From Bilabrum cf. latius (taxonomy: Eukaryota): a stretch of 64,000 nt of DNA. Location of the stretch: assembly GCA_965178125.1 (NCBI GenBank), contig OZ237737.1, forward strand, positions 1,302,001 to 1,366,000, given 5' to 3'. The translations under genes and the position numbers were made by a program. Under the pieces are notes generated by a model. It was not told the DNA's origin. It saw only the letters and a program-made list of their open reading frames with translations, and searched no databases. Positions 1 to 63,944 of the stretch are shown here, one piece after another (within the stretch, counting starts at the first letter, position 1; each line of letters begins with the position of its first letter).

Positions 1-3000
1 TCAGGCGGCAGTAGAGGTGCGAGCGGCCAGGCAGGACCGCAGATCGTTGAGTTGGGCCATTCTACGAGTCACGACGGCGTAGCAAGCGTTCCGCATAACC
101 AAGGCGCTGTTCTAAGGACACTTGTCGGGACCCGTGCAAGGCTCCGCAGACTCACTGCTGTTGAGCTTGCCTCCCTCCCCGGCGTATACGGCCGGGTGCT
201 TGGGCTAGGCATGGCTGCCAGAGCGCGACACCTTGGGAAAGTGGGCAGAATCAGCATGATTCTTCGCTCTCTTGGTACTGTGCATTTGTTGCTGCAGCGT
301 GCCAAGTATTGCCACAGGAACGGATCGGCAGCTCGCCTGTTTGCAGTTGGCTTCGCCCTAATGTAGCACAGGAAACGACGCCTGTTCGCAGTTGCCTCTC
401 GCGCAATGGCCCTTGGAGCTTTCGTCGCGGAGCACAGATGGCGCGTTGAGGCCAGAGAGAGGCGAAAGCACGTGCTCCTCAAGAAGGTGAGGGCAATGGG
501 GGCCAAGGCAGCCAAGACACTCATGCAGAGGCGCTAGAAGAAGGCCAAAGGCGGCAAGGCACAGCAGGGGCAGAACCCCGACGACGATTTGCTTGCGTCT
601 CTTGCGCTCACCAAGAATGTCAATTGGGACGTTGTTGACGAGGTGAGGGGTTCACTCTGGGACCAGCACCGCCGCGTGGTGCGCCCCAAGCATAACGCCG
701 ATGGCGTAGAAGCCATGGGCGACTCAGACTCGGACGAGAGGGAGGGAGAGGGGGATAATGGTGCCGGCAGCCGGGATCTGGAGCAGGCAAAGAAATCTGG
801 AATGACCTGGATGGATGCGTTCGGGCTCGACACGGACGGCACTCCGTACGATGTGTCTCCAGATAGCATCCTTCGGAACCTGCTTCGGCAATCTGCAGCG
901 CATTACAGGTCAGAGGCAGCCGCTTCTAACGCCCCTGCGAACGTGACTCCACGAGTACAGCTGGCGGCTGCTGCGTCTCCACCAGACGGAGGTCACATTC
1001 AGCACTCTCGTCGCATGTCGCAGTTCACAAGGTCCGACAACGCAGCTGCCCTCCTGGAACTCAAGCAGCTGCCCACTCCTGCCCGAGGCCAGCGCAGAGG
1101 TGCAGGCGCTACAGGAGGCATGAAGTCGCCGGGGCAGGCCGCGGCAATCGTAGCCCAGACGGCAGACGAGATCACGCAGCTTGTGTCGCACCCTGCCTAG
1201 CTACGGCTCTCTGCGCGCTTGTTTCCTGATCTCATGGACGAGTTCGGAGTTCAGATGAAGGAGTCGAGTTCCCGACGGTCCACATCGGCAGCCGGAGGGG
1301 GCGCCTCCACGCCTCGGGCTGGCCGCAAGAGTGAGGTAGTTAAACGGCTATTTGATGACGGGGATGCCAAGCAAATGGACATAGCGCTCATGCGAATCCT
1401 GCAGCAACACGAAAAGCAAGTAGCAGAAGAGAGTGGCGATACAAGGAAGGCGCGTAGGAAGGGTGCTTCATTCAGCTCGCCGGGCGCGATCGAGACACCA
1501 TACGATTGGATTGCCTGTGCGCTGCAATCTGCGGACTTGGAGGCCTTGGGTGGGATGGAGGTGGTGGAAGCGCTCCTACGGATGCCTTGCTGGGACCGTC
1601 GCCTCGCTGACATCGTCAAGGCCCACGTGGCGAGGCAGCGGAGTCTCACCGCTGATGGCGCGCAGTACGACGTTGGGGCCGATCGCGCATTTGGTCCGGC
1701 GGAGCTGTTCGTCCTGTCTGTTCCCCTCGGAGTGTCGCAGGCGCAACAAAAGCTCAAGTGCTTGCAGTTCGTGGGCGGAGTCTCTGAATCTATTCAGCAC
1801 CTCCACGTCCCAGTGTCACGACTGCAGCGAGCCTGCAACGAGGTACTGCAAAGCCCCAGGCTGGTCGTCCTTCTTCGCGATGTGATGCTCCCAGCCGGCA
1901 ATGCTCTCAACACGCATTCTTCCAAGGCAGCTGCGTCTGGTATCAAGCTGTCGAGCCTGCCTGCTCTTGCCCGGACGCGCAGCAAGTCGAACGTGAGTCT
2001 GCTTCGGTATGTCGCCCAGAAGCTCGTACGGCTCGCCGATTCGGAAGCAGCACAGTCAGCAGGATCACCCGAGTCTGTGCAGCAGCACACTTCCGCTGCT
2101 ACTGCCACCCATGACTCCCACGGAAAGCTACTGGGGTCCCCCTCCGTGCGCCTGCTCACGCATGGTAGGCTGCAGCGCGTGCCCGGCTCGGCATCATCGG
2201 CAGCGGGCATCGCGATGCAGCAGCTCCCTGCTATTGAAGAGAGCACAGCGGAAGATCCAACGTCCCCCGAGGCCCAGGCGCCGCCGCAGACACCCAAGCC
2301 AGGAACACCGCTTGATTCGCCCGCCACGGAACTGCAGCAGCGAGCGACCCCTCGCCAAGGCGCTGGGGACGCGAGGAGGCCGCTCATGAGGCGAACGTCT
2401 TCCATGTGCGCGAGGAAATCGTTTGCCAGCGTGAGCGTGCAGGAGTTGCTTGATCCTGCAGAGGAAATCCCTACAGCCATGACAGTTGGCCGTGTTTCCC
2501 TTGATCAGGTAGTGTCCGACTCGATCTAGCTGCATGGCCAGTGCCAGCAGCACATCGACTTCGTCAAGAGGCTTGTCGAGCTCGAACGGAAGAAAAGGCA
2601 GCACGACTTGGAGATGGCAGAGCGCGAGGATGCGCAGGAGTTTGCTTCGATGATGGACGAGGAGGGAGCCATAGTGCCGGCTACGAGGCACCGGCGCCGA
2701 GTCACGGTGGATCGACGCGACACCCAGAGCACCGCCTCGTTCTCCAGCGTGGTCGAGCCCATGCTGCTGCGTGCTGAAGCTCGCATCTCTCAGCTACTGA
2801 CTATCAGCCTAGAGGCCATTCTTGGCTACGTGGAACTGTGCAGGTACACGTGCGAACTGCCGGCCCTGCCGCAGCAGGCGGCTGAGCTGCGCGAGCTGTC
2901 CCTCTCCGTGGCCATCCGGATCGCCACTCGGCACGGGACCGTGGTGCACCCCGGGCACCCTGCCGTACAGTCTTCCCTCCCCGAGCCAGAGGGCGATGAA

Positions 3001-3306
3001 GATGACTGCGTGACGTGCTCAGAGCTACTAGATTCTGTGCAGTGGTTTGTGCAGGAGTGGGGCAAGGAGGTAGCTTACTGCAAGCTCAGACTAGAGCAGG
3101 AGAAAAGGCAGGCGGCTCTGTCGCAGCAGCGGTCTGGTAGGAGCAGGCGAACTCCGGGAAAGGGTGGACGGAAAGCCGAGCTGCGGGCTTCGCTTGAGCA
3201 TGCTCTAGCTACCAGGCGATTGAGCGATCGTGCCACTCCCCAGCGCAAGCTTCGACGCGAAAACAGCGCCGACTCCATGCAGATGCACGACGGCGACTCT
3301 GATTGA
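1..3306 (+). CDS. FH2-domain formin, 5' partial; one frame if TAG is sense
   Basis: ORFs 52-366, 589-1200, 1219-2529 and 2608-3306 share a frame and are separated only by TAG (364, 535, 1198, 2527); ends TGA. FH2 motifs: KNVNWDVVDEVRGSLWD (lasso) and LQRACNEVLQSPRL...GNALN...GIKLSSLPALARTRS...SLLRY. Confidence 0.85.
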
Positions 3307-3369
3307 ATGAACGAGTCGCAGTATTATTTTTACTTGTGTTTTTGACCTCATCATTACGTTACAAATACC

Positions 3370-6300
3370 TTATCGACCCCGCCCACGCCCTCGCCCGCGC
3401 CCACGCTTGGAGGCCCCACGGAACCCCTGGCTTGCACCAGCAGGCACACCATCACCGTGGCTGTCCATTTCTGGTCCACGAGCAACCACCGCACCAGCTT
3501 CATTCCGGCGGGCCGGCGCCATGCTTGTGACCTCAGCCGCCTTGCGAGTTTGTCGTGACTTCTCTCCCCTTTTGCCACGCCCTCTGCCCCTGCCACTACC
3601 TCTGCCTCGATTCTACCCACTCTGTCTCTTCTGCGAAACCTACTCCCGATACGAAGCACCAGCATGCGCAGCGTCGCTGATGCCGGCGGCTGCCGAAGAC
3701 GGCGGCAAGGCGGGTACTGGCAGCGCCCTCGCGACGCCTCCAAACGCAAGGGCTCCGGAAGCTATCGGGCTCTCAACGGATGGATCCGTGGGAAGCACAC
3801 CGGTGAGCTCTGTCCTATCGGCCGCAATCTCCTGCACAAGTGCAAGGCACGACACTCGAGAGCTAGAATCAGAACCGTCTCCATGCTGCGCCCTGACCGG
3901 GTTACTCGGCCAGCCGTACGTGTGACCGATCCCGTACAGCTCCCGAAGCGTGGACTCGACCATGCTGCTAGCATCGACACCAGTTGGCCAGTCCTCGTTC
4001 TCATAAACAGCAGCGAACAGCTTGCACAGCCGCAGGGCGGCCCGAGCGTCCTCCACCGAATCGTGCGTGGCGCTCTACAGGCCCTCCTGTTCCAGCAGCT
4101 GCGCAGCGAGGAATCGCAAGGGCAGGCTCCTGTCGCCCGGGAGCTTCCAGAGGTGCGCAGAATCCCGCACCTGCCGCGGGGGCACAACGATGCCCAGCGT
4201 CTTGAAATCGTTCTCGAGTCCATGCCCCACGATCGTGCACCCCTGGTCCACGAGCGCCCTCAGCTTCAATAGGACGCTGCGAAGGGGGACGAGCACGCGC
4301 TCTGCGCGGGACTCGTCCAGGTCGGCCGGTGTGACGCCCGAGAATCGCGTGAGGTAGTCCACGATGGGCTCAGTCACGCGGATCCAGTCGTCAAACACCA
4401 CGCTGCCGTCGCTCCGAACCACACTCACCCGTGCCGGTGCAAGCCTAGCAGGTCGCACGACCACTTGCCGCCCATCCGTGTCAAGGCGCGTCTCCTGCAC
4501 CTGCACAGACACAAACTCCGCATCGAGAGCTAGCTCGTCGCCAGGCTGTGGCCACTCCTCGGGTGGGAGATTCAGCTGGCCGGCAGCGACAGGCTTGCCC
4601 CGAGCCGCCGCCGCAGAGAGCTGGGACTGGGAGAGCTCGACACCCCAGGAGAACACGCGCAGCGGGACGGCACTGACGGCGGAACCCGGTGTCACCGAGG
4701 CCCAGGCCTTCTGTAGCACGGGCAAGGAGGCAGCCTGCGGCCCGGACAGGTCGGAGAGCGGGAAGAATGCGCTGCAGTCGGGTGCCTCGTCCTGCAGGGT
4801 GCAGCTAGCGTACAGCATCGTGCATGGGGTCACGGCGGCATGGTTCAAGATGTCCTGCACTGAATGAAAGCCACTCAGTAGGCCGATTCGGCCAGGTGCC
4901 AGCGAGAACCACTGTGACTTTGTGTCAGAGTCGCGAAGGTGCGACAGACCGGCGTCTTCGGGCGCGACCAGGGTGGCGTGCCGCTGATCCACGCGTGCGA
5001 GCACCGCGTAGTGGCCCGAGCTATGCTCGGCCTCGCTCGTCTTGCGCACGCCAGCGGGTGCAGGACCGGTCCCGTCGTCTGCAGTCTCGTCTTCTTGCTC
5101 CGGGGCACCCCTGCGGTTCCAAGCCTCGTCCACGTGGACGACCGCGCCAACTAGGCGGTACTTCCTCCGGGTAGCAAGCTTGAGCCCGTGGGTGCCATGC
5201 GACTCCCGACCGCCGTACGGGTGAATGCCCAGGCCCTCACCCACGTACTGCCCGGCCCATGTCGTTGCAACTCCCCCTGCAGCCACACTAGGCCCAGACG
5301 GGGAGCCACCTGCCTGAAGCCCCCCAGCCTTCGAGTCGGGACACTCCACGCGTACCTCGCCGAAGACCTCCGGCAGCCCACCCGAGGCAGCCGCCCCTTT
5401 GCTGTCGTCGAAGCCCCTGCCGTCTAGGCGCCCGATCGAATCGAGGACACCTCGCGAGCAGCGGCCCTCCGCGACAAACTCCTCCGGAAACCAGCAGCTG
5501 CCAGGCCCGGCATCGCTGTTTCTGATCACGCCGAGGCCCTCTTCGTCGTCGATGCCCGGCAAGAGGACGAGCGTGGTCGGTAGGGACAGGAGCACGCGAG
5601 AGTCCACGATGGGCGCACCCCTGTGCCTAGGAATGGCGCGAGCTCCGCTGATAGCTCGGGACAGCAGGCGAGGGAAGGAGAGACGGCCAGCTGGCCCACT
5701 GGCGCCCCCCTCCACCATGATCTCCCCGTGGACAAAGTCGCTGGGCCTCTCCCTCGCCCGCTGGGCAGATGCCTCGGCGCTTGCCCGAAGGTCCATCGAG
5801 GCGTGGCGCCTGTGCCTGCGGCCCCCCGTCCCGTCCCCCAGCACAGAGAGGGTGCGAGCGCGCAGTGAGTCGAGCAAAGTGGCAGCCAGGGTGCGATCTG
5901 CGGCGCTCGTTGCGCTCTTTGCACTGCCAGGGACAGGGCCTGCCGAGGTCTTGTCTCGGGTCCTGCCAGCCACGTCATCGATGATGTGGCTTAGAGCATA
6001 CTGCGCAAACGTGTGCATTCGCTTTGCCGGTGGCGCGTGGGTAGGGTGCAGGAAGCCGAGGTTTCCGACACCTTTCAGCTGTGCGACAGCTCGCGCCACG
6101 TTGTCAGGGGGCAGGGCCATGTCCTCTGGCGGCAGGGAAGTGACGGCCATGGTGATAGCGTCAAAGAGCAGCCGGGCCTCGCTGGCCAGGCACCTGGGCG
6201 ACGATGACAGGTGCAGCTGCACGCTGCCGCGGATCTCGGGCACAAAGTACAGCAGCTGAAAGAACTGGGCGGTGAGGTCGTTCTCGCCGGATGGCATCAG

Positions 6301-9300
6301 CGGGACGATCGGGATCTGCGCGGATGCACCCGTTCCAGATCCAGACCCACCGCCACCGCTGCTGCCGTCAACCTACTCGACAAGGCTCTGGTTGTCGCGC
6401 GACCAATCCACCATCCAGATAGGCCTACCTCCGATTACACCCCTGCCACCTGCTGCCCCAGTCTCGAGGCGACCCCCCACGCGCTCGCGAGAGGCCGCAG
6501 CCGCGCGCACGCCCTTTGGGGCTGGGACACGGACCGCCCAGGGAGGCACGCCAAGCCTGCCTGCGGAGCCGTCGTCGCGCGGCTCGATTCCAAGCAGCAT
6601 CAGCAGCTCGTCGCCTGTGACGTGGGGCCCAATCGCCTCAACGGTCGCCAGGTCGTCCTGCAGCTTCGAGTCCTCCTCCGTCTCGAGCTCCGACTGGGAC
6701 GTGTCCAGCCCGCCGGCGGACACGGCGCTCACCGCACGGCCCCGCCGCGCCGCCCGGCGCGACCTGTCCGCGATCCTCGCGAGCATTCGCAAAGCCAGGG
6801 CGCGCGAGAGCACCTTGGGCTTCGAGGCGGCAGCAGCGGCTGCTGCCGCACCGGCTCCGCCGTCTGCCTTGGGTTCCGCCCTCGATGGGTCGCTGGCAGA
6901 CCGCACTACCTCCGTGACGGGAGGCACTGCCCCCAGGTAGACTGCTTGATCGATCCAACGGTTGCTGTACAGCAGGGCGGACGGGTCGATGCCCTGTGCG
7001 TCCTTCTCGTCAGACCAGCCCTGTACTAGCAGGGAGCGAATCGTGTCTGCAGGGGTGCCCTTGCCGACCATGCCAGACGCAGCGGCCAGAGGCAGCGGGC
7101 CTATGAGTCCTGCGCCCGGAGTTCGTTCCATGGGGGCAGGGACGGGCAGGGAGCCCGAGGCAACGGCTTGCTGGTCCACCTTCCGCGCCAAGGGCACGCG
7201 GGGTACCCTCCTCGACGACCGGTCCGACTCCAGCACCGGGTGCAGGTGGCAGCTGGCCCGATCGGCGCCGGTGATGGAAGGCTAGCCCGAGAACGCGCCG
7301 GCTGGCTGACCCCCGAAGACGGATTGAGCTGATTGCCTGCCGCTGTAGCCACCGTCCCTCCAGCTACCGGCCTGCGCATCTGAATGGCCTTCGAACCCTT
7401 GCTGGCCGGCCCCGGCCCTGCGAGGCGGCGCCCTCGGGGGCAAAAAGAACGACAGCAGCTTTGTGGTATGTGCCCCCGGCCCGCCAACCCCGCGCCCACC
7501 AGCTCCGCGCCCCACGAAGCCCCTCCCCTGGGGCGGCCCAGCGCCCACATCCGGCAGCACTGAGTGGTGCGCCGGGCCCTGGCTGCGTGCCAGGCTACGA
7601 GCATCACCCAGCACGACGGCGAGTGAAGCGATCCCCCAGTCGTCCACGTCCACGGAATCGCCGCTCCCAATCTTCGCCCCGCTCTCTGCCCTCGCGCCCT
7701 CCAGCAGTGCCTGCGTCTCGCCCTGCGCCTGCCCGTCTCCCTGGTCCCCGTCCCCCAGCGGCGCGTGCCGCCTGACGGCGACAGGCGGGTCTGTGGCGCC
7801 GATCTGGGCGCCCCTCCCTAGAGCCTTGCAAGACGACAGGCTCACCTGCATGCCCCTGCCCTGCAAGGCCTGCGCCACCCACGGCGCCACGAAGGCCACG
7901 GTCAGTCCCAGTGAGGCCACGGGGGACAGCCCCCTCATGATCTCCACAGCGGTGCCCCTGTCCCCTGCCGCGTCAAGAGCGCGGGCCTCTATGCGGGCTC
8001 GCTCCCGGCGCTCGACCGTGTCCAGCTCCACCGCGCCTCCCATGATTGCCACCGGCAGCAGCCCGGGACCCTTTCCCTCCAGCACCACGTGCGCTGCGAT
8101 GAGGTCTCCGGAGGGTGCCACGGCCATGCCCGCCAGCCTGCGGGACACACCCCGTGCGGCCCTCGTCGGGTCGAACGAATTCATCTCGCCGTCCTCCACT
8201 CCGGCGGCGCGCGCCAGATCTAGCGCTTGCTCCGTCTGCAAAGAGCTCGAATCCACCGACGTCGCCGCTGCCTTGTGAACCTGACCCTCGATGCATGTGG
8301 CACCAAAGGTGCTTAGGTCGTCTCGGCTGGGCCCACCGAACCCGCCCCCGCCCACGGCACTGGCCTGCGCAGCGGCAGCGGCTTGCGGATTCGACAGGTC
8401 GATCACTTGCGCCCTGCCTCCTCGAAACCCAACCACGACTGCCGCGCCCGCAGCCGCACCGCCCCGGCGCCCGCGCCTACCCGGCCCGCCCGTCATGTGG
8501 CTCGATGCCGACCTTGCAGCAGGGGGCAGCTCCTTCAGCGCCACGGGAGCCGCTTCCGCCAAATAGGAATGGACGATCTTCTGACGCACGGCCCACGTGT
8601 CTGCGCCGGTCAGTTCCCTGTCGAATGCGGCGCAGCTGACCCCTCTCGGGCTAGCCATGTCTCGGGGGGTGGCGAGCGGCACCAGGGCCACTTGCCTGTG
8701 CATGCGGACATCAAAGACCCGGAGGGCCGTGTCAGCCTGCGGCAGAGCCCGTGCACCGTCCTTGCTGGTATGTGATGAGTGAGGTGGCTCGCTGCGCAGG
8801 CCGATGGTCATGAGGTAGTCGCCCGAGGTGGCCATGGCTAGGCAGCCTCCCGAGTGTCCCTCCAGTGAGGCGATTCGCTCTGTCTGGCGCAGGTTGGGGT
8901 CGAACATGGAGATCGCAGGGCCCTCAGCGCTTCCTGCAGCGAGGATGCGGCTCCTGAGGCCGCCGCCCGCGAGGAACGAAGCGTCGTGGTTGTCGGGGCC
9001 GGCTGGCACACGGGAGAGCACGCTCGGGGCGTACGAGCCGGGCCCGGGTCCAGGCCCGTGCTGCTGCTCGGAAGAATCGCCGAGGATGCCTAGGCTGGGA
9101 AGCATCGTGGCAGCGGGATTATCGTCTCCAGTTGTTGATGCCGCGGTGGCGGCGGATCGTGCGGCCCAACCGAGGGCGCGCCGCACGGTCGAGCCGCGAT
9201 GCTTGCTCTCTCGTGCCAAGTCGAGGAGACACAGACCACCGAGTCCAACTCCACCAACAACAATGCGTTCTGCGGATGGCACGTAGGCTGTTAGCCCGTC

Positions 9301-9757
9301 ACCGTACGAGAGCCTTGCCTCGAGCGAACTGCCTATCGCAGCCATCGATCGCAGTTGATGGTGCTGCGTCGCATCAGCGGCTATGGATGCTGCCGGCACA
9401 TGCGCCCGCAGCACGCAACCACGATCATGCAAACGAATTGAATCATCTGCGAGCGACACGATGCCCCTGCGGTACAAAAAAAATGTGCAACAGCGCCAGC
9501 ATGCGGTAATGTGGCATGCAACAGAGCAAGTGAACTTAGGACCACAAGTCTACTTACTCATCCACAGCAACAATTGAGGAAATGGCGCTGAACGCCCCCT
9601 AGCACGCAGCAGAGGTGCGCAGGGATGGGAGCTCAAAAGCTGCAAGAGCGCCGATTGAATTGGCTGCCCACAGTCGCTCAAACTTAGAGTCAAACTCCAC
9701 AGCGGTAGGATTTCTCAGTAATTCTGTTGCTCCGGAATCGAGCCATGGTAAGTCCAT
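3370..9757 (-). CDS. PAN2: PAN2 poly(A) nuclease catalytic subunit (WD40, UCH-like and DEDDh exonuclease domains)
   Basis: Exon 1 9558-9757 (VEFDSKFERLWAANSIG), intron 9467-9557, then one frame through ORFs 7282-9477, 6373-7236, 4075-6297 and 3640-4056. TAGs at 9599, 7282, 6373, 4075, 3640 and 3613; ends TAA at 3370-3372. Motifs ALDAEFV, IVDYLTRFSG, IVGHGLENDF, HDSVEDARAAL. Confidence 0.9.
9467..9557 (-). other. Spliceosomal intron of PAN2
   Basis: GTAAG...TTTTTTTTGTACCGCAG; removal joins VAVD-E-GIVSL in frame. Confidence 0.75.
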
Positions 9758-9862: not shown

Positions 9863-9877
9863 TACCATTGTGTGGTT

Positions 9878-10093: not shown

Positions 10094-12937
10094 TCAGAAC
10101 CTGTGAGCACCCTTGGTTGCAGTGCCTCTCCGCCCTTTTTTCCCCAACCTTCGCCCGCGGCCGCCGGCCACTCCTTTTGCTCTGGCACCCCCACCGACCT
10201 GCTTGGCCATCTCAGCGTTCAAGCCGGCCACAAGCGCATCCATACTGTGCTCTCCAGCGCCAGCGCCCTCTGGCTGGCTCTTCCTCCCTTCGCTCTAGCC
10301 CTCCTCATCACCCTCGCCCTCGCCATCATCGCCTGCCCCGTATTCGTACCCTCCCACAAAGGTCTGTTCCCCGGCCCACGGCACTGTCCCACTGGCACCA
10401 TCCTAGTGCTCAGCACCGCCATGCAATGCACCATAGATTCCCCCCTCCCCCTGCCCCTGCCCCTAACCCCCTCGCTGCTGCTGCTGGTCTTCGATCGGCA
10501 GCGCGGGCGGAGGGGGAGGTGGCCTGGACTCAGCCACCTTGGACTCGGGAGCAGACGGCAGCCTGTTGAGCCCTCGGGTACTTGAACTCGCAGGACCAGC
10601 GCCAGCGCCAGCGCCTCGTCCGCGCCTCCGGTCACCCCCACCACCCCTGCCCCCGCTGCCCCGGGCCGCGTATCCCCCCCCCGCGCCCGCCCCATGAGCC
10701 CCGCCTAGACGCCCCTGCACAGCGTACCCGTTCCTGGCCGCATCTGCACTACCATGCGGTGCACCCAACCCCGCGCCGGTCCCTAGGACGTCCGGGCCGT
10801 TGACCTCCGCCGCGTCGATGACCAGGTCAAGGGCAGCGAGTCTGGCCTGCAGCTTGTGGCTCCTCAGCCGCTCGCGGTTGGCCTCCTGGCCCTTGCGCTG
10901 GGCAGCGACTCGGAGCCGCTCGCGGTCACTCGTCATCTCACCGACCTCGACCCGGAGCCTCTGCAGCGATTTCTCCGTGACCTCCCTGTAGAGCTCGAAG
11001 TCGGCCACCTGGTTCCGCAGCCTCTTGATCTCGTCATGTTGGGAGGCCAGCTTGGACTGCATGCCCGGCGGCACGCGCACAGGCTGCGCGAGCTTGGCCC
11101 GCAGCTGCTCCTGCTCCTCGAGCAACTGCTCCATTCTGCGCTCCATTTCCGCGGCTCGGGCCTCCGCAGCATCGGCGCGGGCGGCATGTCTCTGGGTCTC
11201 TGCTTTCTGCGCCTCGAGGTCGCCCAGGATGGAGTCGAGCCACGCGGAGGAACCAGCCCGCTTGAGCGTCTTGCCACCGCCCTGTTGCTGATGAATCTGC
11301 TGCATTGGCTGGCCAAGCGATCGGCCGATGCTCTGCGCAGGTGCTCCCGGTGCATTGAACTGCTCCGCAGACTGCACCCCGCTCCCCGACGCAGGTGCAG
11401 CTTCGTGGGCATCGGCTCCAGCATAGGGGGCCGCAAACCCAATGCCTGACCCGGGCTCTGACGATTTTCCGCCCGTGCCCGCACCCGGGCTCGCGTCCTC
11501 GCCGTCCTCGAACCGTCGCACGGTAGGCAGGTGCCCGGTGGCCGCTGTTGCCGCCCGCCCCAAGGATGACTCCGCCAGCTCCCGCTCGAGACCGCTCTCT
11601 TGTTCCCCGGGCACCAAATTTCCATCCTCGTCGACCATCATCCTTCCCTTCTCACCGCCCGCCGCCCTGACCCCTGCCTCCTCGCCCTCCTCCTCTGCCT
11701 CCTCCTCCTCCTCCTCACCGCCGTCCTCTGCGGAGGACTCTCTGTCGTCGCGCAGCAGGGCACGGATCCGGGAGGAGAAGCGGAGGGTCGCGACCATCGC
11801 CGGCTGGTCGGCGAGCGCACTCGTCACACAGCCCACGAAGAGGGCTTTCTGCAGCCGCAGCAGCGGGCGCCGGAGCAGCTGCGTGACGACAGAGCCGGCG
11901 AAGGGCGCGGATGGCTCCGCCCGCTCCAGGGAGGAGAGCACACGCTGCAGGCTTCGAACCCACGGAAGCACGCCATCCTCCTGGGTGCCTTCGTCCTCCT
12001 CGAAAATAGGATCCACGGCGGACGCGTCGCCCATGCGGACAAGGCACAGCTGGGAGGTGAGCGTCGGTCGCCGGTCGGGCTCGCTGCCATCGCTGCTGCC
12101 GTCGCCAGCGGCTGCCGCACCGCTCCTCCCACCCTTTCCGCGGGAAGATTTCGCCGCTGCAGTTGCAGTGTACGCGTGGACTGGTGTCTGCAGCAGCGTG
12201 AGGCAGACGACGTCGTGCGGCACGGGATCGGCATCCGGATCGACGGGAAGCCCCTCCGCGTCGCCTTGCTCTGCCTCTTCGCTCGGGGGATAGACGCACT
12301 GCGCCAGCTATTCTACGTCTTCTTCAGCCTGTACCTAGACTTCCCACAGACCAGGCACGACCGGACCTAGCATGGGGTCGTCGCGAAGTGAAAGCGCTGG
12401 CGCTTGTGGAGCGTCGGATCCGCCGCCGGCCGAGCTCGAGGCTCCCGCGCCCGGCCCACCGGACGCTGTTGCCCTCAAAATATCGCGAATTTTGTCTCGT
12501 CTGATCTGGTACCATGCCATTCGCACGACTGGGCGCCACGCGTGCGCATCTTTGCGGGTTCCTAGCCTGCGAAAGAGCTCCCCGGCACACTGGGAGAGCA
12601 ACGACCTGGCCCCACCAGGACGAGCAGATGGTGGACCATGGGCTAGAGCATATTTTCCTGGCCCATCCTCACCCATTAGGACAACGCTTGCGCTGTGGCC
12701 TTCGCACACTGCTGCAACTGCTGAAGAAATGTCACTGTGCAATGCCCCTTGCCGCGCTGCCACGGCCGTCACTGTGGCGTCATAATCAAACCGGACGACT
12801 TCGTTTATTCTAGTTCCTGGCGCGAACACCGCCTGGCGCTCATCGCTCATCATCATCCCGCCTTCGTCCTCGCCCCTGGACACTAGCACAACTCGTCCCA
12901 ATCGCAGCGGGTCCGCATCGGCTCCTGCTTTCGGCAT
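10094..12937 (-). CDS. Divergent kinesin-motor-like protein with C-terminal coiled coil
   Basis: ORFs 12335-12937 and 10463-12223 plus tail in one frame; TAGs at 12335, 12308, 10463, 10403 and 10295; ends TGA. Kinesin-like segments VRFDYDATV, VCEGHSASVVLMGEDGPGKY, VRMAWYQIRRDKIRDIL, LRDDPMLGPVVPGLWEV, SVVTQLL. Confidence 0.7.
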
Positions 12938-13528
12938 ATTTTACTATCCACAGAATCTAAACGATGTGTGTGAATGCAGTCTTGCCGATCGTCTTTTGCG
13001 TCCTTTCCTGGGATCTGGCAACCAGCCGTTGACTTCTGTGTCGATTTCAGTCCAAACTGGTCGCAAACGGCTCCGAATCGAGGGTCGACACTCCAATCCA
13101 ATGATACCCAAATGCAAATAGAATGCCTTGTCACAACTATACAGGGGACGTAGCTCAATCTCCAGCTCTTGGTTTGATTAGTGTAAGGAGCTGCATGCGG
13201 CACCCTCGCCGTCCACCGGCAGCCAATCCGCTACGGCCCATGCCCACCTCACCGACGCGTTGTTTTGGCCACTGTCTGTCCTTCCAGCACCTCCAAGCAC
13301 CTCATAGCATTTCAGATCTCTCTGGTATACCAACTTCCCTGCCTTCTCGCAGGTGTCCACTGTCCAGTCTGCTGGCGGACTAGATAATGCAGCTCAATGA
13401 ATAGATCCAGGATTGCACCCCTCCGCACTCACTCCGCAGATCCGATCGCACCGCAAGTCAAATCACTTCGTCGCATATCCTTGTACGTAGCCAGAACAAG
13501 CACCTGAAAGCAGGAGACTGCCCAGGCC

Positions 13529-43257: not shown

Positions 43258-43344
43258 TGCCTACCGCAGCCTGGTCTGCCGGAGTTGCGCCGCGCAGCAG
43301 TTACGGAACCAATTGTGTCCTTTCTCGTGCACAGTTCCACCAAC

Positions 43345-49167: not shown

Positions 49168-49288
49168 GTTAATCGACAATTGTGTCGACCAAGCAATCCG
49201 CGCGTCAGATCCTTGCGACCACGTGCGGCGACCGCAAGTGCACTGCACGAACCCACAACCCATCCAGGAGACGTTTGCAGGCATTCAA

Positions 49289-52200: not shown

Positions 52201-52951
52201 TGGATCGTAGCGTGTGCATGCAGCCAACAGACCTGCCAAGACATCTGGTTCCTACGCGGATGCTACCTCCAACGAAATGCTGATTGCAGACGTTGTCAGC
52301 ACTGAAAAGCATCTTATTAAGACGGCAGAGAGACTCTGGGGGCGGCGCACAGCTGAAGAGGATGGCATGACCGAGGGCTCCGCAGACAGCGGCACTCGGC
52401 GTACCGGGGGAGACGCATCGTCTGAACTTGCTGGCATTCTATTGGCTAGCGAAAGCGAAAGTTCTAAGAGTCAAGAAGGCGACCGCCGCATAGATGCGGC
52501 GAGGACACTGTCTCACACGCCCCTTGTGGAGGACAGAAGCCCGCCGCTGCGCACCCGAACTCTTCTTGCAAGGAGTATGCGATCCACGCCTGGATCATCA
52601 CCGGGTGTCACGACCATCACAGGCTCTCGTTTGGACCCTTCATCCAGTCCACTGGGGACAAACGGGGACGTGCAAGCCTCAGCGATTCTCAAGCCAACAG
52701 CCGAGGTCGGACACCTTCGCCTTGAAAATAGGGGTTTGCGCGTGAAGTACTCTCGAGCAGTCAGAGCATTGAAGCTGGTACTGCAGAGGACTCCCCCTCC
52801 AGCTGCACAGAGAATCATTGATGAGCTGAAGTAGGATGTTGTGGGGCGGCCCGCCCCTGTACCGTTGGGGGAAGGCCATTCCACCAGCGATGTGCGTATT
52901 GGCGAAGGTGGGAGTGTTGCGTCACTGCTTATTGCGCTGGCTGGCAACTGA
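49289..52951 (+). CDS. Kinesin motor protein with N-terminal motor
   Basis: VVSVVRILP, DRVF, GATGCGKTFTM, HPESSRSHAV, FVDLAGSE, INKSLAALG, FRACALTRVLQGSL, CVSP...ESLATLQF; one frame with about 12 TAGs; ends TGA. Confidence 0.87.
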
Positions 52952-53190: not shown

Positions 53191-56100
53191 TCAGCCGACC
53201 GACCCCTTGGTCTCCAAGAGGTCCAGGACGCGATCCAGCTTTGACTCGAGGCGATCCATCCTCTCCTCCAGCTTGCTCCTGCCTCGCCTCGCGCGCTCTG
53301 CCCCGCGCTCCGCCTCCACACGAGCCGCGTGCGCCGCACGGGCAAACATCGCGGCCTGCTCCGCGCGCACCACACGCACCAGCTGCTGCATCTCGTACGA
53401 CTGCTTGCCCAGCTGCGCGCTCAGCATCAGCACATCCTTCAGCTCCACGCTGCGCCCGATCTCCAGCAGCAGCCCAGTCACAAACTCGTACGGCAGGTCC
53501 CTGTCGGTGCGGTAGTTGCGGGCAGCCATCATGGACTGCAGCACTTTGACGGAGAGGGCCTGCATGTCGTTCGCGTGCAAGGGGTGCTGCAGGAGAACCC
53601 TGGGCATGTAGTCCATGCGGAGGGCCTTGATGCGGCGGCGACGCTCCTCACGGATCATCTCTTCATTCTACTGCTCCCGCCCGATCATTGACAGCGACAC
53701 TCCAATGCTGTCAGTGTCGGCAGATTGCTTGCTGTCCGAGCTATCCTTACCTGCCAAGTTGGGCTCATGCCCGGACCCAGCAGCTGGCGCACTCCTCGTC
53801 GACTGATGAACTGCGATGGCCTCTACGGCAGTGGGCTGACCATCCGATCCTGTAGGTCTGAACATGGCACGCATTGCTGGATCGATGTTGGGCTGCGGGT
53901 TTATTGGTATAGGCCGGAATCCTTCCAATGGTGCGCTGACACTGCTGGTTGGTGGCCCATGGTCGGGTCGCACACTATCTGCTGCAGGAGGCTTGGCTTG
54001 ATTGGCTGCTGAGGCAGAGGTTGAACTTGCATCCGATGCCGCTAGCCTGCTAGCTGACGCTTCGAGCTTCTGTGGCGATGCGAGCCCGTCGCTGCGTACT
54101 GCTGGCAGTGCTTCATCAACTTCTCCAGAATCGGAGTTCACGAGCCGAATGGCCCGCTCCACGTCCTGCACCTGCGCCGCGAAGCCCTCGTACCGAGCCA
54201 GCACCTGCTCCTCCTCCATGTCGTCCACCACATTGAACAGCTTGCGGTCCATCTGGGATAGCACGGATCCCAGCACTCTCCTGTCTGAGTTCTCGATGAG
54301 ATAGGATATGTCAAGCAGCACGTCCTCGCTGACGTGCAGAAGGCGGAAGAGTTCCGCCATGTTGGACTGCTTTGCATCCGCATTCTATGGCGTCTCCTTC
54401 AATTCTTCCTTCTTTTCCGGAGCAGGCTTTGGTTTCAAACTTGGCGCAGCAAGCTTGCCCAACAAGCTCTGCCGGGGGGCCGCGCTGCGAGTCCTGTCGT
54501 GCTATTTAGCAGGAACTAGCCCACCGAGTGTTGGCTGCTGGCCATAACTACTACTTGATTGCTGTACCGCAACAGAACCTTTCTGCGTTGGCTCTAACGG
54601 TCTGGAATCTGCGTCGGCCGACGCCGCAGCCGGTGCATGGACGCGCTGCACGCGGCCATCGCTCATCAAATCGCTGTCACAAACGATGTCCTCTAGTCCA
54701 ATACCATCATCTGATGGAGCACCCAATTTCATGAGTGGGTCCAACAGTGTGCAGTGGCCGCTGTCCAGCTTCTCCCGGGCCTGCAAGTTGTTCTCCGCGG
54801 CCTTGGCAAACGCTGCTGCGTCAGCTGAATGCCCGTCATCGTCCTCGTCGTACTGTTTGACGACGTATGCATGGACTGCTCGACGTAGCTCTTCGCTCGA
54901 GATCCCGTTCGAGTCATCGTCATCGATGTCTTTGAAAGTCTAGATGATCTGGGTGCGGCGCTTCCGACGGCTCTCCAGTCCTTCCAGCTCGCGGCGTTGC
55001 CTGTTGGCTCGCGAAGTTTCCATCAGCTTGTCCGAAAAAAGCCTGCGAATACAAAGAAGCAGTGTATTTCACTATCACTCTCAAGCTTGGTAGCTCTATC
55101 GCGCGGTGAGGAGGACAAACTGTCACGGCCTGTGCCAACGATTGCAGTTGCGGCGGACTCACCCGATCACAAGGTTCAAGATACCGAAGGCTGCGAAAAA
55201 GTCAGGGAACGTGTGGATGGACTGGAAGTTTATTTCATCCCACATGGTGCACTTGTTCTGCGATAGGACAGACCCTCCGACCCGCTGCACAACGAAGCCG
55301 TCCTCACCGGTAAGAAGAACGTATGACACGAAGAGCGACACCGTCCACCCCTGCACCTCCCAGATCGGACGCGCCAAAGCCATAGACCAAGACTCCAGCG
55401 ACATGATCTAGAACAGCGAGTACATCGACCGAGGCACCGTGCCGTAGAAGGCCCGCACATCCTCCTCCTCCGGCCGCCCGATCCACACCTCTGCCTTTCC
55501 AACCGCCTCGGTGAAGATGAGGGCATACACGTAGATGAGCACGAGCAGGAGCATGGACGCCCAGAACAGACCGGAGAGGGAGGCAATCTGCGAAATAGTT
55601 GCATGAATGGGTTGGACCAGTTATAATGAGGCAGTCGTCGGCGAAGGCCTGCCTCGGGCTGGGCGCACCTCGAGGCACAGCATGCTCCGGCGGAGCGCAG
55701 GACAAGGCAGTTTGGCGCTGCCGAGCTCACGAATCCCATCAGCAGGTTGTTCAGCTCGTGAAAGAACTGCGAGGTACGAGAAAGGCATTCAATTTCAGGT
55801 GGAAACCGGGCAGTTGCGTGAGCAGGCCTGGGCTGCTTCACCGCGAAGCTATGCAGTACACTGTGGCATGATGTTGCTGCGGCTCCTCGGTCACACTTAC
55901 CTGTAGTGTCCGCCCCACGCGACCCACGCGCAGCAGCCGATTTGCCAAGAACACGCGCGGGATCGCCCCACCTGCTGATTCAAGGGTCGTACTCACGATC
56001 AGCCCGACCGCTGATACGAAGGCAATGAAGAAGTCGAAGACGTCCCACCCGGAGCTGAAGTACACTGACGGCGTCAGGGCCACGATCTTCACAATGGCCT

Positions 56101-56811: not shown

Positions 56812-59800
56812 TCAGGTGGACTCGCTTGAGTCGCCCGAAGAAGCATGCGGAACCTCAGGCTCGCCGGATTCCGGTTTGTCTGACGCGGCTCCGCTCTACA
56901 AGAGTGCAAGGAGCTAGTCCAACTTGCCCTCCATGGAACCCAAGCGGTTTTCCATCCGATCCATCCTCTCCTCCAGCTTGCTCCTGCCTCGCCTCGTGCG
57001 CTCTGCCCCGCGCTCTGCCTCTACACGAGCCGCGTGCGCCGCACGGGCAAACATCGCGGCCTGCTCCGCGCGCACCACACGCACCAGCTGCTGCATCTCG
57101 TACGACTGCTTGCCCAGCTGCGCACTCAGCATCAGCACATCCTTCAGCTCCACGCTGCGCCCGATCTCCATCAGCAGCCCAGTCACAAACTCGTACGGCA
57201 GGTCCCTGTCGGTGCGGTAGTTGCGGGCAGCCATCATGGACTGGAGCACTTTGACGGAGAGGGCCTGCATGTCGTTGGCGTGCAAGGGGTGCTGCAGGAG
57301 AACCCTGGGCATGTAGTCCATGCGGAGGGCCTTGATGCGGCGGCGACGTTCCTTGGTATCCACCTGCTGCTTGTCCTCCTCCTCTTTGCCGCCCTCTTCT
57401 TCTGCACCCTTGGTCTACTTGTCTTCGTCGCCTCCAGCTGCCTTCACGATCGGATCCAGTGCGTTGCTACTGCTGGCAACCGGGCCGCTGGACCCGGTGC
57501 TGTTGTTCCGAATGAGACCAGGCTGATTGAGTCTGTGTGCAGCGACGGATGCGCGCCTACCGTGCCCGATGTGATGGATATTCGTATTGCGATCGGCTTG
57601 AGCGGCCTCTACCAGCAGGCTTGACGCCTGAGTATCATCGCCTGTTCGACGCAGTTGGTGCTGCAGGGCTTCGGGAATAGCCGCTGCAGGAATGACCGGA
57701 ATGGGAGCTGCTGCCAGCATTCTGCCCTCGCGCCGGCTCGCCCCGCGCGATCCACTTCGGCCATCGGTTGCACCACCAGGTGTACTCGGAAACGAGAAGA
57801 CATTGCCAGTGCCCGCTTCAGCAGAAGAGCTAGAGCCATGACCTTCCTGGTTCCGTGGCTAAGAGCCTTTTGGCGTGAATGGGACGCGGGACTGCGTCTC
57901 TGCGGCCCGACCGGCTCGTGCGGGGGGGCGCGGGAGACCACGTCCAGGCGAGCCACGCACAGTGCTACCGTCAGTGCGAGCAGGTGGTTGGGGCGCATCC
58001 ACGCTGCCGGAACCTGGTGCATAATTCACGAGCCGAATGGCCCGCTCCACGTCCTGCACCTGCGCCGCGAAGCCCTCGTACCGAGCCAGCACCTGCTCCT
58101 CCTCCATGTCGTCCACCACATTGAACAGCTTGCGGTCCATCTGGGACAGCACAGATCCCAGCACCCTCCTGTCTGAGTTCTCGATGAGATAGGATATGTC
58201 AAGCAGCACGTCCTCGCTGACGTGCAGAAGGCGGAAGAGCTCGCCCATGTTGTCATAGCGTCGCTCCAATTCTTCTTCGCTCACTTCGTCTCCCACGATC
58301 GATGATCGGTGTCTGCGAAGGCTCTTCCTCACCGCTGATTTATCTTCCTCCGTGGAACTATGGCCAGCTGCAGAAGCCCCACTGGATGATCTTGGTTTGA
58401 CCATCCCGCGTAAGCGACCCTTGCCCTTCTGCTAGGAAGGAAACTCTCCGCGGCCCTCAGCACCCCCGAGCTGCTATTCCTAAATGCTGGATGTCCCAGC
58501 AGTAGGCACCACAGCGAGCTCAACCTCTGGCTGCACACTTGTAGCTGCAGACACAGATGCAAGAGCGCTAGATTGTACCTCTTGCTAGCCAGTCGACAGC
58601 GCAAGATGTGCCTGACTGCGACTGCTCGCGGGAACTGCCCCGCCATCGTCAGGTATCGCGGGTGGAGCCACATAGCGTGTGCCCGCCGCCGCAGGCTCCT
58701 CACCGATGGGCGATAGCTGGCCTGCATCCAGTGGCTCCTCCTATTTGGAATTCTGCTGTCTTCGCGACTGAAAATGTCGAGTGGGGGGGGGCTGCGTGAC
58801 TACCTGCTGGTGCCTGCGGTGGTCCTTGAAGCTGCTGTCCGAGTCAGAGGAGTCTGAGTCGATGTTCCCCTCAATCATGTCCTCTAGTCCAACCCCATCG
58901 TCTTCAGGCATGCCCACTTTCATCAGCGGGTCGACAATCTCGCAGTGCTCCTTGTCAAGCTTTTCCCTGCTAAACATGTTCGATTCAGCTGCCTTCGCGA
59001 ACGCCGCAGCATCTGCCGCGTGCTCGTTCTCGTCCCCGTCGTACTGTTGCTAGACGTAAATATGAACAGCACGCCGGAGTTCGTCACTTGATATCCCATT
59101 GGACCCGTCCGTGTCCATCCCTTGAAAGCTCTGAATGATCTGCGTCCTGTGACGCTTGCGTGATTCAATGCTCTCCTGTTCGCGTTTTTGCCTGGTGGAC
59201 CTGGACGACTCCATCAGCTTGTCGGAGAACAGACTGCGTACGTGATCAGGTCAGCGGATAGGTAGGACAGATACGTGAAAGGGCGCCTGAGCAGAGCCCC
59301 ATGAACGGCATGTGCCACAGCTTGCCTCACCCGATGACCAGATTCAGGATACCAAAGGCTGCGAGCCACGTCGTGAGGTTGAAAGTGATGATGCAGAGAC
59401 AGATAGAACCGGAAGCAAACACAATAACTCGGTTGGGGGTGACTGCTTATTGAACTTACCACTGAGAAGAACGTACGACACGAACAGCGACACCGTCCAC
59501 CCCTGCACCTCCCAGATCGGACGCGCCAAAGCCATCGACCAAGACTCCAGCGACATGATCTGGAACAGCGAGTACATCGACCGAGGCACCGTGCCGTAGA
59601 AGGCCCGCACATCCTCCTCCTCCGGCCGCCCGATCCACACCTCTGCCTTTCCAACCGCCTCGGTGAAGATGAGGGCATACACGTAGATGAGCACGAGCAG
59701 CAGGACGAAGGCCCAGAACAGACCGGAGAGGGAGGCGAGCTGCGGGAGCAAGCATCAAGCAAGAACGACAGCAACAAGAAAATGATCTAAAAGACACTTC

Positions 59801-60914: not shown

Positions 60915-61352
60915 GCGACGCGGCAACAGCGTGCATTGCGGGCAAGAATGAGAACCGGGTGTACGAGTCCTGTGGTGCAGCTGGAAGCTGCGGCTGCGTG
61001 TCACGTGGCTTATGCTCCAAAAGCGTCTTCGGTGTTCGCTTACAGCGAAACACACAGCAGTCACGGATTCGGCTGCTGCTTGGGCAACAACCTGGACACG
61101 TGAAGCTTCTAGGACAGAACTGCTAAGTTAGCCCTGGAGCCGTTGTGGAACTGCTCGCAACAATCCACCCATCGAATCCGATATAAATCCAAGAAAGCTC
61201 GTCTGCTAACAAAGAGACTCTCGGCAAGACTGGACATGTAGTCTTAAGTTAGGTTTGTCTCTAATGGTAGACCGAGCAAGGCGCTGGTTTGCGACCAGGT
61301 TTGCGTGAGGTGGCTATGATCTCCCCTTGCTGTACGTGTTGCAGTTTACCTA

Positions 61353-63944
61353 TTGTTAACGGAAGCGGTGCACTACTTTTATCTCTCCGGTTTATATTTT
61401 AGTAGCACAGAAGCACTCAAGTTGGAAGAGAGGCAATCCTGGGGCGCTTTGGGCCAGAAGGCGGTGCCTTCATCAGGTGTTTGGAAGCGGTCGCAAAGAA
61501 ATGTAAGCCTGTCACCAGCGGGAACGATGCAGAAATCTTCACCTCGTAAATGTATTTTATGTGTACCAAGTCTTGCAATTTTGGACCCCGCAGATGCCGA
61601 CGATGCCACCGCGAGCCAAGTTACAACGGATATCGCGAAAATCGCCGCAAAGGTGGGCTTGCTTCACGCTGAAAAGAGACTGAGACGAAAGCAGCTTCGC
61701 GAGTTGGCGAAACTAGCTGTAGATCTTGCACACGAGTTGTTGCTGGGACTATCGAAACGTCCTGGGTCTATCGACGGCAGCAGCATGGTGCGCGCCTTCG
61801 GGCTGGTTGCAGATGAGGTCGAGCGAGTGCTAACGCCGCTGATGCAAGAGCACAACTGGCGGAAGGCTAGTGGGCTCGTAAGATTCTATGGTGACCCCAA
61901 CGTGGTAAAGGCGGTGGCAAATGAGCCCCGCTTCGGAGAGGACCGGCAGATGCTGCGCGACTTCCTGCAGCACGCGCTGAGCCGCTCGGGGAAGTACGTG
62001 CCGTTCCAGGAATGCTCCGTGCCCGGATGCAAGCTGCCTCGCTGCAATCTGCCTGGCTCAACTTACTGCGAGGGCCACCATGCCGTCCGATTCCAGGAGC
62101 CCCCAACACTGGAGGACTTTTTGCGCAACGACGTGTACAGGTCAGTATTCCGTGAGTACTGCCAGTCGGCCCGCCCCGAGATGCAGGACGTGCTGGGCTT
62201 CATGGAGAGAGCTAAGGACGTGTCACAGCTGCGGGCCAAGCATGTCCTCGCGGAGAGAGCGAGGGTGGTGTTCGACCAGTACGTGCGCGAAGGGGCTGAC
62301 AAGCAGCTTTTCTTTTTATCCGACGTGGACCCGAGGGAGGGGTCGGGCAGGGGGGCCGCAGCGATCGGATCAAGGTCTCGGCTGGATTCGGCCAACACGG
62401 TCGGCGGGGAGAGCACAGCGGACATGGCAAGGGAGGCAAGCGGCTTTTCTCTGCGGTCCGCGGGCGGCATCGAGGATTCGGTTCTCGTTCCGGGTGCAGG
62501 AGGGGACTCCTGTGGAGAGGTTGCGCAGTCTGGCGTGTGCGCTCCTGCACTGCCATCGTCCCGAGTGACTGCAAGTGGAGAGGACGGCGAGGCCCCTGCG
62601 GGGCTAGAGGCTCGAGCCAGAGGCGGATCTACCACAACCGCAGCAGAGGCGACACCGCCAGCAGGACCCGTTGTTGATGCCGGCGCTAGCGCACACGTTG
62701 GCGCTGGGATGGGGCCCCTCTCTGTGCCGGGTCCCATGGCACCCAGCAACGGATTAACATCGGGAACTCTGCATGCTGGCTTGCAGCGATCTCGTGGCGG
62801 CATGAATCTGCTGGCAGCAGCTCCCTCGTCGGAGTCGAAGGAGGACCCCACTGGCGGTGGCACCGAGTCGAAGCTGTTTCCGTCCGGTGCAGGCGCGCCT
62901 CCGTCACCGACAGTGACAGATGCCCCGCCGACTAGCGAAGCCGGTGTTGCTCCTAGCAATGGGCACGCTTCCACAAGGGGTCCAGGCCAAGCGTCTCCGC
63001 CATCCGGATCACCACCCCGGATCCGCGGTGCCAGCGCCAGGGCCAGGGCTAGTGCCAGGGCTGGGGCGGGTGCCGGGGCGCTGGCTGCTGCAGCCTCGGC
63101 GGCGTCTCCGGGACGGGGGCCATCCTTGGCGCACCGGGCCGACTCCACGGCATCAACGCGGTCCAAACAAGGCGGTGGCGGTGACTTTGCCCGGTTCTGT
63201 GCCAGGCGAGATGCCGAGGAGTACGAGGCAACTCGCGTGAGGCTTGCGGGGATTTTGAGGTACCTGTACCGGGTGCTGAGCGACGATTTCGACGAGGAGG
63301 AATAGGAATAGGCGGGAGCTGCTGGAGCAGATGCTGTTCCTGCTGCCGGGGGTGATGGTGGCAGCGACGGCCCCGCCGCGAGTGGGGCTGGTGCAAGCAG
63401 TTCGTCCTTGCGCCCGCCGCCGTAGACGCGGAGGAAGGGCGCTGTCAGGTCCACAGTGTTTAAGGGCCTCGTTAGGGAGTGCAGGTGGCACCTGCACCGA
63501 GTGTTCGAGGGCGAGTTCAAGTTCAGCCAGCAGTACGCAGCGTGGGCTGACGTGAACCTCGGGCTGGAGGTGCCCGAGGTAACCGCTGGCCGCGCTGCCA
63601 TTCTGAAAGCCGCTGGGGTGTCTATCGGCGAGGCCATGGGGGTGAGGAGGGTTTCTTCGGGCGAAAATGGGGGTGCTGGACCCGCGTCTGGGTCTGGTGC
63701 AGGGACGGGTGCTGGGTCTGCGTCTGGGTCTGGGTCTTCTGCTGCAAGCACCATGTCATCGGAGGCTGGTGTTGGCGTTAGTAGGGCTGGAACCGGCATG
63801 TCACCGGTGTCCACGCCAGATTCAGAAGCGTACCAGGCTGGTTTGGAAGCGCTGGCAGCTAGCCCTGAAGACGAGAGCAGCGCCGGCGACGGGGCGTCCT
63901 CTGCGGCTGCGGGTGGCGCGGCTTCAGGTGGATTGAACATTTGA
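61353..63944 (+). CDS. RGS-domain protein; 5' end uncertain, probably spliced
   Basis: LEDFLRNDVYRSVFREYC...VLGFMERA...ARVVFDQYVREGADKQL, then a long Ala/Gly/Ser insert, then VFKGLVRECRWHLHRVFEGEFKFSQQY. TAGs at 63303, 63309 and 63423; ends TGA. A Cys/His cluster (CSVPGC...C...CEGHH) precedes the domain. Confidence 0.7.

Follow-up and report, generated by a model that had tools for sequence, protein, structure and literature searches.

Known UAG Codes and the Bilabrum Window

In nuclear genetic codes, UAG and UAA are described as almost always being reassigned together, and cases in which UAG alone has changed its meaning are few (PMC5304391, PMC11687900). The present work concerns a stretch of 64,000 nucleotides (nt) from Bilabrum cf. 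latius (NCBI GenBank assembly GCA_965178125.1, contig OZ237737.1, positions 1,302,001 to 1,366,000 of the forward strand; hereafter, the window), whose 16 protein genes all contain TAG codons in frame and in which UAG is probably read as glutamine (Gln, Q). Among the UAG-only codes described, UAG encodes Gln in the fornicate Iotanema spirale, in the ciliate Protocruzia tuzeti and in two phyllopharyngean ciliate lineages (PMC5304391, PMC11687900), leucine (Leu) in the rhizarian exLh (PMC5304391) and also in ciliates (PMC5304391, PMC11687900), serine (Ser, S) in the ulvophycean alga Scotinosphaera, where TAA and TGA stops were seen (PMC8271138), and glutamate (Glu, E) in one uncultured ciliate (PMC11687900). 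Both UAG and UAA (UAR) encode Gln in the table 6 code of many ciliates, Dasycladales and related ulvophytes, Hexamita, Streblomastix and Amoeboaphelidium (PMC11687900), and Glu in Blastocrithidia (PMC12153298). A preliminary description of the window, in which UAG was proposed to be Gln with UAA and UGA kept as stops, gave an incomplete list of UAG-only lineages, from which Scotinosphaera (Ser), P. tuzeti and the two phyllopharyngean lineages (Gln) were missing (PMC11687900, PMC8271138).

That the window carries a real genetic-code variant of this already known UAG-only kind is well supported. It is like the taxa of the NCBI table 15 pattern (UAG = Gln) in having UAG as a sense codon and UAA and UGA as stops, with Gln appearing as the best-supported meaning in the comparisons made here. 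It differs from them in its high GC content (∼62%), its scarcity of introns, its Ala/Gly-rich proteins and the prevalence of TGA among its stops (15/16 genes); in the two taxa of Pánek et al., UAA is described as the dominant one (PMC5304391). The likeness to Scotinosphaera lies in the reassignment of UAG alone and in several window TAGs that stand opposite Ser in relatives, whereas the one strongly conserved TAG column of the window is Gln, Ser scores 3–4 bits lower in profiles, and nothing in the window pointed to the poly(A) signal of green algae. The rhizarian exLh is likewise a UAG-only, non-ciliate protist known from sequence data alone, but Leu scored far lower than Q, E and S in the window, with −13.6 half-bits over the distant columns against +5.0 for Gln, and lowered the Pfam score of coproporphyrinogen III oxidase (CPOX) by 2.4 bits. 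With table 6, the window shares a stop-to-Gln change and the retention of UGA as a stop; however, it has no in-frame TAA where ∼19 would be expected, and TAA closes its PAN2-like gene. The UAR = Gln code was rejected, as in-frame TAA was absent and reading TAA as sense did not lengthen the genes.

TAG as an In-Frame Sense Codon

Across 18,567 codons of the 16 gene models, 81 in-frame TAGs were counted and neither TAA nor TGA was found in frame; because some models take the earliest ATG of the frame as their start, a few of the 5′-most TAGs (for example, at PAN2 residue 55 and LRR residue 24) may precede the true one. Each of the 16 models contained at least one TAG. The genes end in TGA (15/16) or TAA (PAN2 only), and the stop codon is followed by a purine in 11 of them. 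Both observations of the preliminary description, namely, more than 70 TAGs spread over all 16 genes and no internal TAA or TGA, were thus confirmed by the full count. Frames +1 and +2, read on the same strand, contained 236 TAG, 77 TAA and 577 TGA triplets, i.e., a TAG share of 26%, and under this off-frame mix, the probability that all 81 in-frame triplets would be TAG is 2e-47. The ratio of CAA to CAG (132:568) predicts ∼19 in-frame TAAs if TAA shared the meaning of TAG; since none was observed, TAA is not a sense codon. It is well supported that UAG is read as an amino-acid codon, UAA and UGA being the sole terminators seen. The gene models, two of which take their introns from transcript-like contigs, are as follows (positions are those of the window; TAG counts are in-frame).

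1..3306, plus strand: formin (FH2) gene truncated by the window start; Pfam FH2 3.3e-20; 4 TAG; TGA end
3370..9714, minus strand: PAN2-like deadenylase gene; PDB PAN2 matches 4.9e-42, RNase_T domain; 6 TAG; TAA end
10094..12940, minus strand: divergent kinesin-like gene (kinesin A); Pfam Kinesin 1.7e-12; 5 TAG, 2 of them in the motor; TGA end
13529..15553, minus strand: C2H2 zinc-finger array gene; Pfam zf-C2H2, 12–14 stretches; 1–2 N-terminal TAG; TGA end
15516..16682, plus strand: two-RRM protein gene; Pfam RRM_1 7.3e-30; 1 TAG in a Ser-rich tail; TGA end
16841..18223, minus strand: CPOX gene; Pfam 1.9e-128; 1 TAG (17444–17446) in the domain; TGA end
18558..26804, minus strand: large RCC1-repeat gene with an orthologue on metagenome contig L002; Pfam RCC1 / WD40_RLD; 4 TAG; TGA end
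27332..28684, plus strand: JmjC/cupin_8 gene with a signal-peptide-like start; Pfam Cupin_8; 7 TAG in 447 codons; TGA end
28717..39882, plus strand: very large leucine-rich repeat (LRR) gene; Pfam LRR_8 1.5e-23; 14 TAG; TGA end
40301..43257, plus strand: CDPK-like kinase gene with EF-hands; Pfam Pkinase 2e-41; 6 TAG; TGA end
43258..46434, plus strand: gene of a PAN_4-domain secreted-type protein; Pfam PAN_4; 2 TAG; TGA end
46623..49167, minus strand: long-chain acyl-CoA synthetase (ACSL) gene; Pfam AMP-binding 3.5e-61; 1 TAG; TGA end
49097..52951, plus strand: kinesin gene (kinesin B); Pfam Kinesin 5.5e-40; 12 TAG; TGA end
53191..55068, minus strand: paralogue 1, with an EF-hand-like N-terminus and conserved C-terminal blocks; 4 TAG; TGA end
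56812..59250, minus strand: paralogue 2; 10 TAG; TGA end
61320..63944, plus strand: TNFAIP8-like / RGS-like gene; weak Pfam matches to TNFAIP8 (6.3e-5) and RGS (1e-3); 3 TAG; TGA end

The longest stop-to-stop frame under the standard code has 1371 amino acids, while reading TAG as sense yields frames of 3722, 2749, 2115, 1285 and 1102 amino acids, and reading TAA as sense lengthens the frames almost not at all. Reading TGA as sense, however, also extends many frames on both strands, which tells against a reliance on length only. Open reading frame (ORF) length is hence weak evidence in GC-rich DNA, and the case was built on homology instead. Pfam and PDB searches showed conserved domains that span TAGs (marked x) in CPOX (KKWCDxYF), the glycine loop of the kinase (LGxGQFG), the PAN2 exonuclease (GLxSATHDSVEDA), the two kinesin motors, FH2 and one LRR repeat. 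The PDB alignments of CPOX carry on past the TAG, and in paralogue 2, homology persists beyond the last TAGs (LDxLLALLxSG vs. LDRVLDLLETKG). Of the mid-domain TAGs listed in the preliminary description, those in CPOX, the glycine loop, the kinesin motor, LRR and PAN2 were recovered, but the one ascribed to JmjC was not: the Cupin_8 match covers only residues 406–442, which are without a TAG. The seven TAGs of this gene flank the match in one open frame, and an orthologue is alignable across them.

Identity of the Amino Acid Assigned to UAG

The assignment of UAG to Gln, which we regard as probable, draws mainly on close relatives and on a TAG of the PAN2-like gene (4075–4077, minus strand) within the exonuclease motif GLxSATHDSVEDA. 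In the corresponding column, Q was found in 136 of 147 non-gap aligned representatives, several of the 11 exceptions being one-column shifts of the same IQ motif, and Q stood opposite the TAG in all three printed PDB PAN2 alignments. A PAN2-specific hidden Markov model (HMM) emitted Q at 0.61, E at 0.04 and S at 0.03 in this column, and the database protein P0252 (78% identical) has Q there in the fully conserved context EGLQSATHDSVEDARAALRLCKL. At shorter distances, the TAG of paralogue 1 at 54940–54942 was found opposite CAG in paralogue 2 by pairwise alignment with a codon check, and the metagenome contig L001 reads WDQLQ opposite WNxLQ of the window. Together with the end of the P0247 ORF, described below, CAG thus stands opposite TAG three times. 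When seven distant columns and 19 close pairs were scored with BLOSUM62, a crude measure for which the pairs were hand-picked and are not independent, the totals were 24.0 half-bits for Q, 14.9 for E and 14.2 for S. In our reading, TAG and CAG appear to be interchangeable at the only site under strong constraint and over the shortest evolutionary distances.

Several comparisons speak against Gln. Over six usable columns, the HMM emissions summed to −20.30 bits for Q, −20.38 for E, −20.74 for K and −23.39 for S. The Pfam sum over five domains was 686.4 bits for Q, 686.7 for E and 682.6 for S. A naive frequency likelihood over seven columns ranked Q behind E, T, K, S and D; it was superseded by the HMM emissions, as zero counts were dominant and two kinase N-lobe columns were poorly aligned. 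The CPOX column contained no Q among 120 homologues (D 60, E 36, K 11, N 8, S 2, T 2, R 1), and the closest relative of this protein (60% identical) has E at the TAG. The TAG columns of the kinase are polar and lean to E or K. In the JmjC protein, four aligned TAGs stand opposite L, S, R and S, and never Q, in the database protein P0244 (80% identical); window TAGs are matched by T, T, V and S in L001, whose own TAG lies opposite a TCG Ser codon of the window. Among the 19 close pairs, S was found opposite TAG five times and Q four times. In our reading, the S, T, L and R matches lie at sites that are variable among relatives, where any one-step neighbor (TCG, TTG and so on) would be expected whatever TAG means. 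The Gln assignment of the preliminary description was accordingly favored by the BLOSUM62 score, the PAN2 column and the close relatives, and not by the profile columns, in which Q, E and K tie, nor by the many TAGs opposite S, T or R in relatives.

Other searches did not discriminate. The generic Pfam RNase_T model, which gave 47.7 bits for each of Q, E and K, does not capture the Q column specific to PAN2. In PDB searches, the JmjC protein gave no matches, kinesin A gave only weak ones that stopped at the TAG, exon 1 of ACSL gave chance matches only, and the TAGs of kinesin B fell in loops. A naive Bayes classifier of neighboring residues over the 81 TAG contexts (V 2.9, Q −1.5 and E −2.5 bits) had a leave-in calibration and was discarded.

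Glutamate, as an alternative meaning of the sense codon UAG, is unlikely. It would suit the CPOX column, in which D or E occurs in 96 of 120 homologues and in which the nearest relative has E, as well as kinase columns 4 and 5, which prefer E. It is level with Q in the HMM columns and in the Pfam sum (686.7 vs. 686.4 bits). GAG is found opposite a TAG near the end of the paralogues, and xEx runs occur beside poly-E (EEExExAG). The PAN2 column, however, holds E in 1 of 147 sequences vs. Q in 136; P0252 has Q at this TAG in a fully conserved context, the ORF of the 93% identical P0247 halts at a CAG of the window, CAG lies opposite TAG in the paralogue and in L001, and the close pairs give E 9 half-bits vs. 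19 for Q.

That UAG encodes serine holds a similarly small share of our confidence, but it is a serious rival, since such a nuclear code has been published for Scotinosphaera (PMC8271138). Serine is the commonest residue opposite TAG in the close comparisons (5/19). P0244 offers identical contexts (PPSxF vs. PPSSF and TASxP vs. TASSP), the L001 TAG faces a TCG codon of the window while T lies opposite two window TAGs, and one TAG is situated within a poly-Ser run. All the S/T matches, however, come from the JmjC gene alone and from sites that vary among relatives. Ser scored 3.1 bits below Q in the HMM columns and 3.8 bits below in the Pfam sums, and occurred in 2 of 147 sequences in the PAN2 column, at least one of these being an alignment shift. 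In the window, none of the TAGs was found to occupy a conserved Ser column, and the chlorophyte-type signal TGTAA occurs within 400 nt of the stop in only 3 of the 16 genes.

Decoding of UAG

By analogy with other codes, UAG would be read by a tRNA whose anticodon is CUA, which would pair with UAG and not with UAA; PMC5304391 gives CUA as the only anticodon that reads UAG while ignoring UAA. For Gln, such a tRNA would be one mutation away from tRNA-Gln(CUG), and it would be accompanied by an eRF1 whose N-domain has lost affinity for UAG; in Iotanema, position Thr32 of eRF1 is changed (PMC5304391). Neither component was found in the window: a tRNA scan of the 64 kb returned no genes, and eRF1 is not among the 16 genes as identified by Pfam and PDB searches.

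The lack of a tRNA(CUA) in the window would also be compatible with a standard code in which UAG is read through at a high level by near-cognate tRNAs, with no dedicated tRNA, or with an ambiguous UAG that is sense inside genes and stop near some 3′ ends. Codes that depend on context have been described in other protists (PMC4967479, 10.1101/2022.04.12.488043), and the last TAG of the JmjC gene precedes its TGA by four codons, the orthologues stopping no more than a few codons away. A gene with up to 14 TAGs, however, could hardly yield any full-length protein if its decoding were inefficient, and TAG closes none of the 16 models (in part by construction, as the frames were defined through TAG). 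Readthrough or ambiguity is therefore considered very unlikely.

Splicing, Editing, and Assembly

Parts of the queried stretch were present in 10 public runs. Four of these (X2, X5, X6, and X7), from three studies, were compared over 40001–60000 as contigs, not as raw reads. Run X2 was found to be DNA-like, with a 38-kb contig colinear with the window that showed no differences over 40001–53281 and contained the TAGs. X5, X6 and X7, from the two studies other than that of X2, gave gene-sized contigs that omit eight GT..AG (CT..AC) intervals, all of which are retained in X2. Since these intervals are skipped in X5–X7 and not in X2, the X5–X7 contigs behave as spliced transcripts; their RNA nature is deduced from the spliced joints only, their label being “RNA?”. 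Contig depth was not taken as a measure of expression. The intervals that bear on the gene models are the following.

40301–40591, plus strand: kinase exon 1
40592–40695, plus strand: kinase GT..AG intron (contig joint 40590>40695)
40696–43257, plus strand: kinase exon 2
48851–49167, minus strand: ACSL exon 1
48640–48850, minus strand: ACSL GT..AG intron (contig joint 48639>48851)
46623–48639, minus strand: ACSL exon 2
59234–59330, 59359–59459 and 59740–59868, minus strand: introns upstream of paralogue 2

The kinase joint was observed in X5 and X6 and the ACSL joint in X5, X6 and X7, both being absent from X2. Kinase exon 1 holds four TAGs, including that of the glycine loop (40427–40429), and the frame is continuous after joining; the sole ACSL TAG (48955–48957) lies in the short 5′ exon. 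Of the 35 TAGs of 40001–60000, 31 were inside transcript-like contig pieces with no other letters and no gaps, the four TAGs of paralogue 1 being outside the listed pieces. All 12 TAGs of kinesin B were contained in a single 3663-nt X5 contig (49297–52959), again with no other letters and no gaps. Paralogue 2 was covered by an X7 contig (56939–59233) and an X5 contig (56495–57348) without differences, as was the PAN_4 gene by an X5 contig (43340–46550). Wholesale editing or splicing of the TAGs is excluded. Contigs may conceal minor edited variants, so that partial editing is possible. An artefact, whether pseudogenes, assembly errors, unrecognised introns or TAG-to-CAG RNA editing, is extremely unlikely, as no support for it was found in these contigs (minor variants apart), all 81 in-frame stop triplets are TAG, the contigs of the four runs from three studies carry identical letters, the spliced contigs retain the TAGs with no gaps, and a relative keeps its frames open with TAGs elsewhere.

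Relatives and Placement of the Organism

Of 5.8 billion database proteins, only three proved to be related to the JmjC protein; the sequences compared for this gene were P0244, P0245, L001 and L002. The last two are near-identical metagenome contigs (GC 55–58%) that encode an orthologue of the JmjC protein (47% identity) and, as in the window, upstream of it and on the opposite strand, one of the RCC1 protein (58%). Their in-frame TAGs, of which the JmjC gene has four and the RCC1 gene two, do not coincide in position with those of the window, and the JmjC gene ends in TGA. Because these frames have in-frame TAGs of their own, the TAG trait belongs to a lineage and not to a single assembly. 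In L001 (∼1000–1700), the JmjC orthologue additionally contains two peptide repeats in tandem (one SDLESSDLP-like, the other EDGSKNGSNESQV-like) as insertions at the sites of short acidic or Ser-rich loops in the window protein.

All that was seen of closer relatives were ORF fragments, truncated by gene callers that apply the standard code. The 99% identical P0248 ends exactly at the PAN2 TAG, and the ORF of P0247 (93% identical) terminates exactly before the CAG of the window at 4627–4629, while P0252 (78%) and P0244 (80%) extend across TAG positions. Searches of genome contigs and viral contigs gave no further relatives, and atlas look-ups gave no signal of lineage.

In a FastTree analysis of CPOX with 56 homologues, the window sequence grouped with three environmental sequences (support 98). 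This group lay inside a 10-row clade (support 91) with a sequence of the dinoflagellate Symbiodinium and an MMETSP sequence, near the oomycetes. The bicosoecid stramenopile placement suggested in the preliminary description thus gains no support and is not contradicted either. A chlorophyte origin looks unlikely since TGTAA, the poly(A) signal characteristic of chlorophytes, was seen at a distance of up to 400 nt from only 3 of the 16 stops. The window contains no 18S rRNA gene and, of the rRNA genes, only 5S. The organism may belong to a clade, so far undescribed, of probably heterotrophic protists that are rich in GC and poor in introns, with its own UAG-only stop-to-Gln reassignment and UGA as the main terminator, a proposal to which we give somewhat less than an even chance. 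Such a clade would comprise the organism, the relatives with ∼93% and 80% protein identity known from ORF fragments, and the relative at 47–58% identity found in two metagenomes. A literature search of incomplete coverage yielded no paper in which nuclear UAG is reassigned in stramenopiles, in bicosoecids or in GC-rich flagellates of a comparable kind; the public runs date from 2025, so that a description may exist or be forthcoming.

Other Features of the Window

The window has a G+C content of 57–72% and is densely occupied by its 16 protein genes, which lie on both strands. The packing is extremely tight. The stop codons of the convergent formin and PAN2 genes are 63 bp apart (3306–3370), the JmjC gene ends at 28684 and the LRR gene starts at 28717, and the stop of the kinase gene is directly followed by the opening of the next frame (43257–43258). 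One RNA gene was found.

9878–9996, plus strand: 5S rRNA gene, full length, 81.4 bits

This single 5S rRNA gene lies between the PAN2 and kinesin-like genes, with no rDNA unit around it in the window. The zinc-finger gene consists of at least 12–14 near-identical 28-residue fingers in tandem, and the repeat opens long frames in its other frames and on the opposite strand (13401–15131, plus strand) that are probably not genes. The density of TAG is by far the highest in the JmjC/cupin gene, where three of the TAGs come after AGC (AGCTAGC). The kinase tail (42669–43335) is a GCN-rich low-complexity repeat common to other loci of the genome, and loose contig ends and false joints gather there in all four runs. 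The spliced ACSL protein begins with MGNTSS (49150–49167, minus strand), which presumably resembles an N-myristoylation signal. Two blocks of ∼100 and ∼150 residues, nearly 100% identical, are shared by paralogues 1 and 2 amid far more diverged parts, which suggests gene conversion or a recent partial duplication. The regions upstream of the paralogues are repeated too, since contigs connect 56030–56134 with 59671–60000.

Implications

Gene callers that apply the standard code truncate the genes of this organism at every TAG. Fragments in databases, P0248 among them, stop exactly at such a codon, so that annotations of the organism and phylogenomic data sets for it will contain errors as long as its code is not set. 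UAG-only codes are natural experiments on how eRF1 distinguishes UAG from UAA. A clade of the kind proposed above would, if true, be one of very few non-ciliate cases, and one for which both DNA and RNA data are already public. In a compact non-ciliate lineage with relatives at several distances, the change would be datable, and the tRNA(CUA) as well as the substitutions in eRF1 could be found. The lineage would also allow a test of whether a GC-rich genome with TGA as its main stop favors the loss of TAG as a terminator.

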